Below are positions 52,552 to 53,167 of a stretch of DNA of 64,000 nucleotides, piece after piece; within the stretch, counting starts at the first letter, position 1; each line of letters starts with the position of its first letter. The notes under the pieces are model-generated. The model saw nothing but the letters and a program-made list of their open reading frames with translations, ran no database searches and had not been told where the DNA came from. A program made the translations under genes and the position numbers. The DNA is from Escherichia phage YW01. The stretch is from sequence record PV018828. One strand, 5' to 3'.

Positions 52552-52600
52552 TGGTGGACTATCTGGAATCGAACCAGAAGCTCACTAAGAAAGCAATTCC
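52552..52600 (-). other. tRNA-like 3' fragment (T-arm plus acceptor 3' strand); possible degenerate second tRNA
   Basis: Minus-sense TCTGG-TTCGATT-CCAGA T-arm then TAGTCCA-C-CA; no matching 5' acceptor strand found. Confidence 0.3.
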
Positions 52601-52678
52601 CACTGTTATAAAAGCACTCGCCTCAACAGGGATACACTAACTCTGGTGCCGCACCCATACTAGCCCTTGTTTAAAAAT

Positions 52679-52754
52679 TGGCCGGGACGGAAGGATTCGA
52701 ACCCTCGTAAGGCGAGTTAGAAGCTCGCTGCCTGTTCCACTAGACTACGCCCCG
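52679..52754 (-). tRNA. tRNA-Arg (anticodon TCT), CCA encoded
   Basis: Hand fold: acceptor CGGGGCG/CGTCCCG, D-arm GTCT/AGGC, anticodon stem GCGAG/CTCGC with loop CT-TCT-AA, T-arm GAGGG-TTCGAAT-CCTTC, discriminator G + CCA. Confidence 0.85.
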
Positions 52755-53167
52755 ATAGATTTGAAACCGTTATACTTACCTGCACATGATCTGTTACAAA
52801 AAGAATTTGCATATTTAACATTTCGCTTTTCTTTTTCAAAAGATCTTCCACAATAAGAGCAAACAACTGAAATCATTGTTCTTCCAGTAGTTGCCTCTAA
52901 TGTTGACTTCTTTCTATGATCTTCTATGGAAAGTATCTGAAGATTAGATATGTCATCATTAGTTTTATTTCTGTCAACATGATCAACCTCCTCGTCTTCA
53001 GTTAAATACCTGCCTATGTGGCATGACATTAAGTATCTTGCGTAAGAAATGGTTGTCCTCTCCGTGTCGGTATTATACAAATCAATACGCTTCCTACCAT
53101 CTCTACTTGTTCTTAAGTAACCCAATCGCCAGTCATTAACGAAGTGGTATTCTAACTCTATCTTCAA
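52745..53167 (-). CDS. HNH homing endonuclease abutting tRNA gene
   Basis: EVDHVDRNKTNDDISNLQILSIEDH HNH core; 3' end overlaps tRNA-Arg 5' end by about 10 nt. Confidence 0.6.
   Translation of the reverse strand: MKIELEYHFVNDWRLGYLRTSRDGRKRIDLYNTDTERTTISYARYLMSCHIGRYLTEDEEVDHVDRNKTNDDISNLQILSIEDHRKKSTLEATTGRTMISVVCSYCGRSFEKEKRNVKYANSFCNRSCAGKYNGFKSIGA

Follow-up and report, generated by a model that had tools for sequence, protein, structure and literature searches.

A 507 base pair (bp) cassette has very probably replaced nucleotides (nt) 20-76 of the resident transfer RNA (tRNA)-Arg gene and a 6-nt spacer, CATTTA, in Escherichia phage YW01 (sequence record PV018828). The cassette occupies positions 52667-53173 of the 64,000-nt stretch of this phage that was analysed here (the window). 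Genome comparison identifies it as a freestanding HNH gene fused with its own, sequence-divergent tRNA-Arg(UCU), with the stop codon of the open reading frame (ORF) inside the tRNA, and points to tRNA-Arg(UCU), the single tRNA of phiEco32-like phages, as a homing-endonuclease hotspot. The tRNA now called in the window keeps AGA decoding intact. Next to the cassette lies an unannotated, tRNA-shaped unit of 115 nt (52552..52666). The overall explanation that we consider best, and hold with some confidence, is intronless homing with a replacement tRNA as cargo, beside a tRNA-derived unit that is probably processed to a stable RNA. The homing part of this explanation is well supported and the stable-RNA part moderately; its main rival is that the unit is a neutral scar. 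The window features of the locus lie on the minus strand, as does every gene of the early region around it, and their coordinates are those of the window.

ARAGORN called a single tRNA in the whole window, a tRNA-Arg(tct) of 76 nt at 52679..52754(-), with an encoded CCA end and a C1:G72 first pair. The Rfam tRNA model (RF00005) matched 52679-52754 with 51.5 bits against a gathering score of 29 (E=9e-10). A canonical tRNA-Arg(UCU) with these traits had been proposed in a sequence-only reading of the window, which had named tRNA finders as a check; both programs bear the gene out. The T-loop motif GGTTCRANYCC occurs twice in the 64-kb window, in this tRNA and in the 115-nt unit, with 0.31 occurrences expected by chance.

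The HNH gene (52745..53167) encodes 140 amino acids (aa) from a TTG start codon. Its translation shows a DH...N...N...H motif and a C-terminal CxxC...CxxxC cluster, and matched Pfam HNH_3 with 26.9 bits (cut-off 24.8; E=3.7e-6) and PHROG 14913 'HNH endonuclease' with E=1.7e-52. The final codons are AAA TCT ATC GGG GCG TAG, and tRNA-Arg begins at the C of ATC. The TAG stop (52747-52745) thus lies inside the tRNA and the ORF/tRNA overlap is 10 nt, in agreement with the overlap noted in the sequence-only reading. HNH and tRNA-Arg are already annotated in relatives such as Bas91, YF01 and O18-011; new here are the reading as cassette replacement, a stub of the resident tRNA (53174-53192), the several independent invasions that a single tRNA gene has undergone, and the 115-nt unit as a discrete and tightly conserved feature.

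A search with a 1.25-kb query around the locus matched at least 113 phage records, nearly all of them podophages of E. coli, Shigella and Salmonella of the Gordonclarkvirinae, with Escherichia phage KM01 as best match (99.8%). The window belongs to an E. coli podophage of the Gordonclarkvirinae (phiEco32/Kuravirus group). The HNH gene is carried by 12 of the at least 113 related records and is missing from near-identical relatives. Seven HNH-less phages (IME267, EP335, SR02, Bas90, ShigP1, 101114UKE3 and PGN6866) have an intact 76-nt tRNA-Arg(UCU) in matching flank. The resident alleles in HNH-less relatives are either of the GCACCC... type (GCACCCTTAGCTCAACGGACAGAGCAG...GGGTGCACCA) or of the GCGCTC... 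type.

In the window, a stub at 53174..53192 (GCACCCTTAGCTCAATGGA) corresponds to nt 1-19 of the resident gene. It is identical to the intact tRNA-Arg of IME267 in the same flank but for one mismatch (AATGGA versus AACGGA), and runs straight into the Shine-Dalgarno sequence of the HNH gene (GGAGGGG, built partly from the stub) and its start codon. This stub had been overlooked in the sequence-only reading. The 3' end of the cassette is a spacer (ATTTTTAAACAA, 52667..52678), at the place of which HNH-less genomes have CATTTA. Alignment of the window with IME267 showed homologous flank, a gap of 438 nt and homology again; the upstream flanking gene (53202..53411; 69 aa, phrog_13426) is homologous in the HNH-less phages IME267 and 101114UKE3. 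Bas91, YF01, O18-011, 1-6bf and Bas93 resemble the window in having only the first 19-30 nt of the resident tRNA-Arg, followed by an HNH ORF. The remnant comprises nt 1-30 in YF01 and O18-011, nt 1-27 in Bas93 and nt 1-19 in 1-6bf. Full-length copies of the cassette tRNA (at least 94.7% identity) are confined to HNH-positive phages. Since the resident gene survives only as a 19-nt stub, the called tRNA (CGGGGCG...) is not the invaded gene but cargo of the nuclease. The proposal of homing-endonuclease insertion at the tRNA locus is therefore upheld by the HNH-less relatives as far as the insertion is concerned; the target, however, was another, resident tRNA-Arg, and the called tRNA came with the invader.

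The same site appears to have been invaded repeatedly. Three HNH subtypes with 62-76% aa identity are found there among the relatives. In phage TH38 (L034:546-1061) the resident tRNA-Arg is parted cleanly into nt 1-26 and nt 32-76, and both halves are kept. The TH38 insert carries a reverse-strand Cys/His-rich ORF of 116 aa (551..901) with an HH...N...H motif, which is unrelated to the HNH subtypes and gave no Pfam call, and brings a third type of tRNA-Arg(UCU) (908-982). This insert represents an independent invasion of the site. Each invader, whether one of the three HNH subtypes or the TH38 ORF, comes with its own tRNA-Arg-like gene. HC-25922 has a 32-nt 3' stub of the cassette tRNA (GTAGGAGGGTTCGAATCCTTCCGTCCCGACCA; L033 ~706-737) just upstream of the 115-nt unit and has no HNH gene, which we read as evidence of cassette loss or overwriting.

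Two further observations concern tRNA genes at this locus. On the metagenome contigs L015, L016 and L017 (~2170-2490) a different HNH-like ORF abuts the lipoprotein gene that follows the locus, and no tRNA was found within 2.5 kb; some metagenomic relatives may have lost tRNA-Arg altogether. In 1-6bf (L009:1906-1984), Bas93 (L030:1441-1519) and HC-25922 (L033 ~625-705) we found a tRNA-like gene without a D arm. It has a perfect CUUCUAA (UCU) anticodon loop, an insert of 20-23 nt in the variable region and a leader/trailer stem of 10-12 bp, does not encode CCA, and scored 29.7 bits with the Rfam tRNA model (gathering score 29). ARAGORN is silent on this gene, so the three phages seem to be tRNA-free. 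The differences between 1-6bf and HC-25922 are compensatory in the acceptor, anticodon and leader/trailer stems, which argues that the gene is real and selected.

In a mixed infection, the nuclease would cut the resident allele of HNH-less relatives in or near the anticodon stem, and recombinational repair would then copy the cassette into the cut allele. The homology arms would be formed by the upstream gene with the stub and, across the cassette, by the conserved 115-nt unit. The tRNA of the cassette would be immune because its sequence differs at the presumed cleavage site; the two tRNAs have different acceptor, D, anticodon-stem and T-stem sequences, the cleavage site being placed from the insertion junctions only. 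Cleavage by RNase P at the 5' end of the tRNA, between 52755 and 52754, would remove the stop codon of the HNH gene, so that the processed HNH mRNA would be non-stop and expression of the nuclease limited.

The HNH gene shows the pattern of a homing gene, with sporadic presence at one site among close relatives and an intact empty site in IME267, EP335, Bas90 and others, and we consider it probable that homing is active or was so recently. Some points count against this account. The target site is deduced from insertion junctions alone, and the junctions differ (nt 19, 27 and 30), although the shortest ones may stem from later deletion. Cleavage, immunity of the cargo tRNA and drive are what we infer. 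It is also conceivable that the HNH gene no longer homes, or never did, in these phages and is a passenger, domesticated or in decay, that stands beside the tRNA for historical reasons. Its TTG start codon, its limited distribution (~10 phages) and other roles of HNH domains in phages, for example in packaging (PMC9965538), would fit such a passenger. The ORF, however, is intact, has the HNH motif and the C-terminal Cys cluster, and its protein is 96-99% conserved among 5 phages. The gene also lies in the early region, distant from the terminase genes, and sporadic presence at one precise site in a conserved gene, together with the intact empty site, is a signature of homing. We therefore regard a mere passenger as unlikely.

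The 115-nt unit (52552..52666; window coordinate = 52667 minus index) begins 3' of the cassette spacer. Its end shows a perfect T arm (index 89-105, 52562-52578; UCUGG-UUCGAUU-CCAGA), followed by an acceptor 3' strand (index 106-111, 52556-52561; UAGUCC) and ACCA (index 112-115, 52552-52555). The T arm and acceptor 3' strand had been recognised in the sequence-only reading (there placed in 52552..52600), which had also stated that they lack a matching 5' half. The latter was not confirmed, as GGGCUA (index 1-6, 52661-52666) pairs with UAGUCC (G1-C, G2-C, G3·U, C-G, U-A, A-U) and closes the unit. The 5' strand of this helix coincides with the 5' limit of conservation between genomes. It is followed by U8-A9 and a D-like hairpin (index 10-23, 52644-52657; UGG/GUGCGGCA/CCA) with GG in the loop. 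A central hairpin of 12 bp (index 36-67, 52600-52631) and an anticodon-arm-like hairpin (index 71-85, 52582-52596; loop UUUCUUA) precede the T arm; an alternative to the latter is index 65-81 with the loop AUUGCUU. Altogether three mutually exclusive weak hairpins with 7-nt loops can be drawn at 52582-52602 (index 65-85), with AUUGCUU, UUUCUUA or UCUUAGU as the loop.

Database searches placed the unit in no known RNA family. Rfam gave no tRNA match at E<=10 and no other family, only noise below threshold. ARAGORN made no call by default, and its intron and tmRNA (transfer-messenger RNA) modes and lowered thresholds gave forced fits at 80% only; at that threshold a degenerate tRNA-Arg(tct) appeared in the 3' 66 nt. 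The unit was found in 29 GenBank phage records, with no annotated feature beneath the full-length matches listed. It was not found in IMG/VR and metagenome loci reached via the lipoprotein gene, in an exact 24-mer scan of IMG/VR, in 185,579 bacterial and archaeal genomes, or by blastn against 5,426 E. coli genomes.

Variation of the unit was measured in 10 genomes from three genera (Kuravirus, Suseptimavirus and Nieuwekanaalvirus). Only 4 of 115 sites are variable (index 15, 24, 48 and 73; all G/A), versus 123 of 327 (38%) in the adjacent lipoprotein gene. Under the tRNA-like fold the four sites fall in the D loop, the junction between the D-like hairpin and the next helix, a hairpin tetraloop and a pair that changes from G·U to A-U, and 100% of cells remain paired. 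EP335 and the window differ at 3/115 positions of the unit, and at 65/282 and 67/247 positions of the next two segments; the working tRNA-Arg differs at 2/76 positions between EP335 and Bas90. The unit is thus as conserved as the working tRNA beside it, which is unlike a freely decaying remnant. HNH-positive and HNH-negative genomes carry essentially one sequence of the unit, and conservation ends at its edges: past the CCA three different 3' flanks follow, and the base in front of G1 is preceded by one of two 5' flanks (CATTTA or ATTTTTAAACAA). These comparisons make it likely that the unit is discrete and constrained, and indicate that it is older than the cassette. The earlier description as a decayed second tRNA or recombination remnant fits only in part: the unit is complete and conserved with or without the HNH gene, while a tRNA-derived origin is likely. 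In phiEco32 and NJ01 the CCA of a real tRNA-Arg stands exactly at the position of the unit CCA, followed by AATCAAATAGGAGG and the ATG of the lipoprotein gene, and this position, together with the stubs that are common at the locus, argues for descent from a tRNA. The route could be a tRNA split in the anticodon region by earlier homing, with most of the insert lost later. The 3' 36 nt of the unit are 92% identical (33/36) to the 3' ends of tRNA-Gln of T4-like phages. The possible ancestry from tRNA-Gln that this suggests found no support in the 5' half.

We propose as most likely that RNase P and 3' trimming to ACCA would cut the unit out of the early polycistronic transcript. A stable tRNA-like RNA would result, as for the species 1 RNA of phage T4, and the lipoprotein mRNA would gain a free 5' end by the same excision. 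We put the chances that the unit is expressed as a stable RNA at about even.

Several results weigh against this reading of the unit. A 6-bp closing helix was found in 12% of shuffled sequences, which is within chance, and was rejected as stand-alone evidence. The stack of acceptor and T arm has 11 bp, where 12 are canonical. In the minimum-free-energy fold, a rod of -37.9 kcal/mol, the T arm is not formed (ensemble probability ~0); folding the unit like a tRNA costs 6-7.5 kcal/mol more, and the folding z-score is only -1.7. No compensatory covariation is seen, since the copies of the unit are 96.5-100% identical (99% mean column identity). The unit is dispensable, as it is missing from phiEco32, NJ01 and O18-011. 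Finally, the neighbouring tRNA shows ~12/76 mostly compensatory differences between IME267 and EP335 and the unit 1/115; as the tRNA changed and the unit barely did, recent spread explains the uniformity at least as well as ancient constraint. Concerning the rod itself, index 10-26 (52641-52657) is complementary to index 88-103 (52564-52579) with 14 pairs, which sets the D-like segment against the T-arm region. We did not adopt the rod fold, which may nevertheless form, because the natural variants at index 24 and 73 break its G-C pairs.

The main rival reading takes the unit as a non-functional scar, left when an older tRNA just upstream of the lipoprotein gene was split in its anticodon region by earlier homing, much like the tRNA-Arg of present-day TH38, and the insert was mostly deleted. 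Its uniformity would then reflect recent spread and gene conversion, the unit being the first homologous DNA downstream of the hotspot, and not selection on an RNA. The abundance of true tRNA stubs at the locus (the window stub, the TH38 halves and the HC-25922 3' stub), the positional homology of the unit CCA with the tRNA CCA of phiEco32 and NJ01, the degenerate tRNA-Arg(tct) that ARAGORN fits to the 3' 66 nt and the resemblance of the 3' 36 nt to T4-like tRNA-Gln ends all agree with a scar. So do the thermodynamically unfavoured T arm, the stems without compensatory change next to a tRNA that has several, and the relatives that dispense with the unit. Seven haplotypes of the unit occur, and the four-gamete test fails for three pairs of sites, which implies frequent recombination within the unit. 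On the other hand, 111 sites are invariant across three genera with flanks that differ by 15-27%, and variation is limited to the 4 sites. Co-conversion should homogenise the lipoprotein gene too, yet this gene is highly diverged even where the units are identical. Moreover, HNH-negative genomes with an intact target cannot owe the unit to homing of the known cassettes. On balance we consider the scar a serious but rather unlikely alternative.

The unit might also act as DNA or in cis only, as a recombination linker, a homing target, a promoter or a punctuation mark for RNase P and 3' processing. Flanking modules do reassort around it, 9 nt separate it from the ribosome-binding site of the lipoprotein gene downstream, a place taken by a tRNA in relatives, and it contains the T-loop motif GGTTCRANTCC, which is recognised by SegB-type nucleases (PMC2330249). 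No sigma-70-like promoter or intrinsic terminator was predicted in the region, though, and the motif of the phage sigma factor gp36 (tAATGTATAtA; PMC4281155) was not matched within 2 mismatches. A processing signal requires the acceptor/T minihelix alone, yet the central 65 nt are just as invariant. A role restricted to DNA or to cis action is therefore very improbable in our view.

Another reading takes the unit as a working, aminoacylated alanine-acceptor tRNA with a 40-nt hairpin inserted at position 26 and a UGC or UCU anticodon-like loop. The pair G3·U70 (G3·U109) is invariant in the 10 genomes and is accompanied by A112 and C113-C114-A115, although only in the register of the 6-bp stem; the acceptor stem is then that of E. 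coli tRNA-Ala minus the 4:69 pair. The D-like loop with GG and the perfect T loop point in the same direction, and removal of index 24-63 in silico led ARAGORN to call a tRNA-Ala(tgc) at its default threshold. This deletion was chosen post hoc from 905 constructs, however, and the Rfam tRNA model did not match the unit at E<=10. In both candidate loops position 37 is a U, where a purine is near-universal in tRNAs. Index 73 (52594), which the UGC reading makes the central 'anticodon' position, varies between G and A; in the alternative hairpin the same change turns a G·U into an A-U stem pair. Together with the 11-bp acceptor/T stack, these features make a decoding alanine tRNA most improbable; we know of no natural tRNA with an arm at position 26.

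A tmRNA was considered and rejected. The unit scored 7.6 bits with tmRNA_permuted (gathering score 47) and 5.8 bits with beta_tmRNA (gathering score 84), in the T arm only; no tag reading frame and no pseudoknots were found, and ARAGORN -m found nothing. We filed the unit neither as tRNA nor as tmRNA, because the tRNA-Ala(UGC) call is post hoc, its middle base is polymorphic and the tmRNA scores are below threshold. Instead, the phage might make and process the unit as a tRNA mimic that becomes alanylated (G3·U70, A73, CCA) and has an extra 40-nt arm and a non-decoding anticodon-like loop, a version that we think has a small chance of being right. Acting in trans, such a mimic could serve as decoy or sponge, either for a host defence that targets tRNAs or for a tRNA-modifying enzyme; alternatively, it could be a minimal tmRNA-like or EF-Tu-binding RNA.

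The gene downstream of the unit (52233..52532) belongs to the Phage_lipoprotein family (Pfam PF24052; E=9.3e-36), and its ribosome-binding site begins ~9 nt past the CCA of the unit. Between relatives that are otherwise close, this gene has diverged to an unusual degree (up to 25-30% nt), and it occurs in forms of 282, 300 and 327 nt, with recombination breakpoints at the boundary of unit and gene. Seven small paralogous ORFs of 72-96 aa with 20-33% identity lie on both sides of the tRNA locus, all on the minus strand (50409-50660, 51523-51744, 51754-52044, 54792-55010, 55021-55239, 55236-55487 and 55477-55713). They have the pattern L..L..G.vF...K...C.N..nG.V...V.P in common.

On the homing reading of this locus, a phage can withstand selfish nucleases that invade its only tRNA gene time after time. 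With every invasion a divergent and presumably cleavage-resistant copy of the same tRNA would arrive, and layers of tRNA stubs would be left behind. The replacement tRNA would thereby do for an intronless element what self-splicing does for intron-borne nucleases. Such invasions would account for the variety of tRNA-Arg(UCU) at this one locus of the Gordonclarkvirinae, where at least five very different sequences occur, and suggest that the diversity of phage tRNAs is driven by nuclease traffic as well as by codon usage or defence evasion. The analysis also flags two unannotated putative RNA genes, the 115-nt unit and the tRNA-Arg-like gene without a D arm, in phages that are gathered for therapy and as models (BASEL collection).

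In the case of SegF and SegG, a freestanding nuclease cuts a relative's gene, and repair installs the donor's resistant allele together with the nuclease gene. Marker exclusion by these nucleases in T-even phages is reported by Belle et al. 2002 and Liu et al. 2003. Their targets are protein-coding (56 and 32), whereas target and replacement allele are both tRNA genes here. A nearer parallel is SegB of phage T4, which cuts tRNA genes of segB-less relatives and drives the inheritance of its own tRNA region (PMC2330249); a statistical enrichment beside tRNA genes has been reported for SegB homologues (PMC13096335). In both systems a freestanding nuclease gene lies among phage tRNA genes, its target (presumed for the window nuclease) is inside a tRNA gene of nuclease-less relatives, and flanking tRNA genes are co-inherited with it. 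SegB is a GIY-YIG protein and is not homologous to the HNH protein of the window; as the latter matches only HNH families and no GIY-YIG family, it is SegB-like in its presumed working and not a member of the SegB family. The window phage further differs in having a single tRNA, in a nuclease ORF that overlaps the cargo tRNA, and in a cassette that destroys the resident gene and supplies a divergent replacement of the same specificity.

Homologues of the HNH protein (41-44% aa identity) were found in PVP-SE1-like phages (Vequintavirinae) and RaK2-like jumbo phages; their genes immediately precede a tRNA gene and overlap or abut it. In the PVP-SE1/4MG/GAP31 group, the HNH homologue (41% aa) and a tRNA-Arg that is 81% identical to the cassette tRNA lie in the same tRNA cluster, so that the nearest outside relatives of both parts of the cassette stand together. 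The PVP-SE1-like HNH ORF reaches 38 nt into the following tRNA, and the RaK2 homologue stops 9 nt ahead of tRNA-Asn. The arrangement of an HNH gene abutting a tRNA thus recurs within the phrog_14913 family. In Salmonella phage PVP-SE1 the ORF encodes 164 aa (L032:1615-2109(-); record 65914-66408) and lies within the tRNA cluster, where it covers the first 38 nt of tRNA-Leu; it is not annotated in the RefSeq record. In these phages the HNH gene stands between intact tRNAs of a large cluster, whereas in the window it has overwritten the sole tRNA and left a stub.

The 115-nt unit resembles tRNA-Ala and the tRNA-like domain of tmRNA in G1-C72, G2-C71, G3·U70, A73 and CCA, and in a T arm followed by ...UCCACCA. 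A lax Rfam scan gave tmRNA 3' ends, far below threshold, as the only matches of the tRNA clan. The unit differs in an acceptor stem that is one pair short and, to our knowledge, has less than half the size of any known tmRNA.

The closest counterparts of the unit are the species 1 RNA (rnaC, 139 nt) and species 2 RNA (rnaD, 119 nt) of T4, which are 119-139 nt long and lie directly downstream of tRNA-Arg in the same transcription unit. Both are made, and their roles are unknown (PMC3014915, PMC9697503). Rfam has no family for rnaC, rnaD or the unit, and comparison of the unit with the two T4 RNAs gave only matches of 7-8 nt (the T-loop heptamer) and global alignment z-scores of 0.5 and 1.7. The kuravirus unit further differs in an encoded CCA and in G3·U70. 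The architecture of species 1 is nevertheless present. In rnaC a canonical T arm and an acceptor-like closing helix surround a long non-tRNA core, and the unit likewise combines an acceptor-like helix and T arm with a long non-tRNA core, on the same strand downstream of tRNA-Arg. The local order in T4 is segB, tRNA-Arg(UCU), rnaD and rnaC, and that in the window is nuclease, tRNA-Arg(UCU) and tRNA-ended unit. This parallel offers a second, independent system in which the role of tRNA-ended stable RNAs can be approached, and if the unit were indeed a tRNA mimic, it would open a first way into the function of the RNA class that T4 species 1 typifies.

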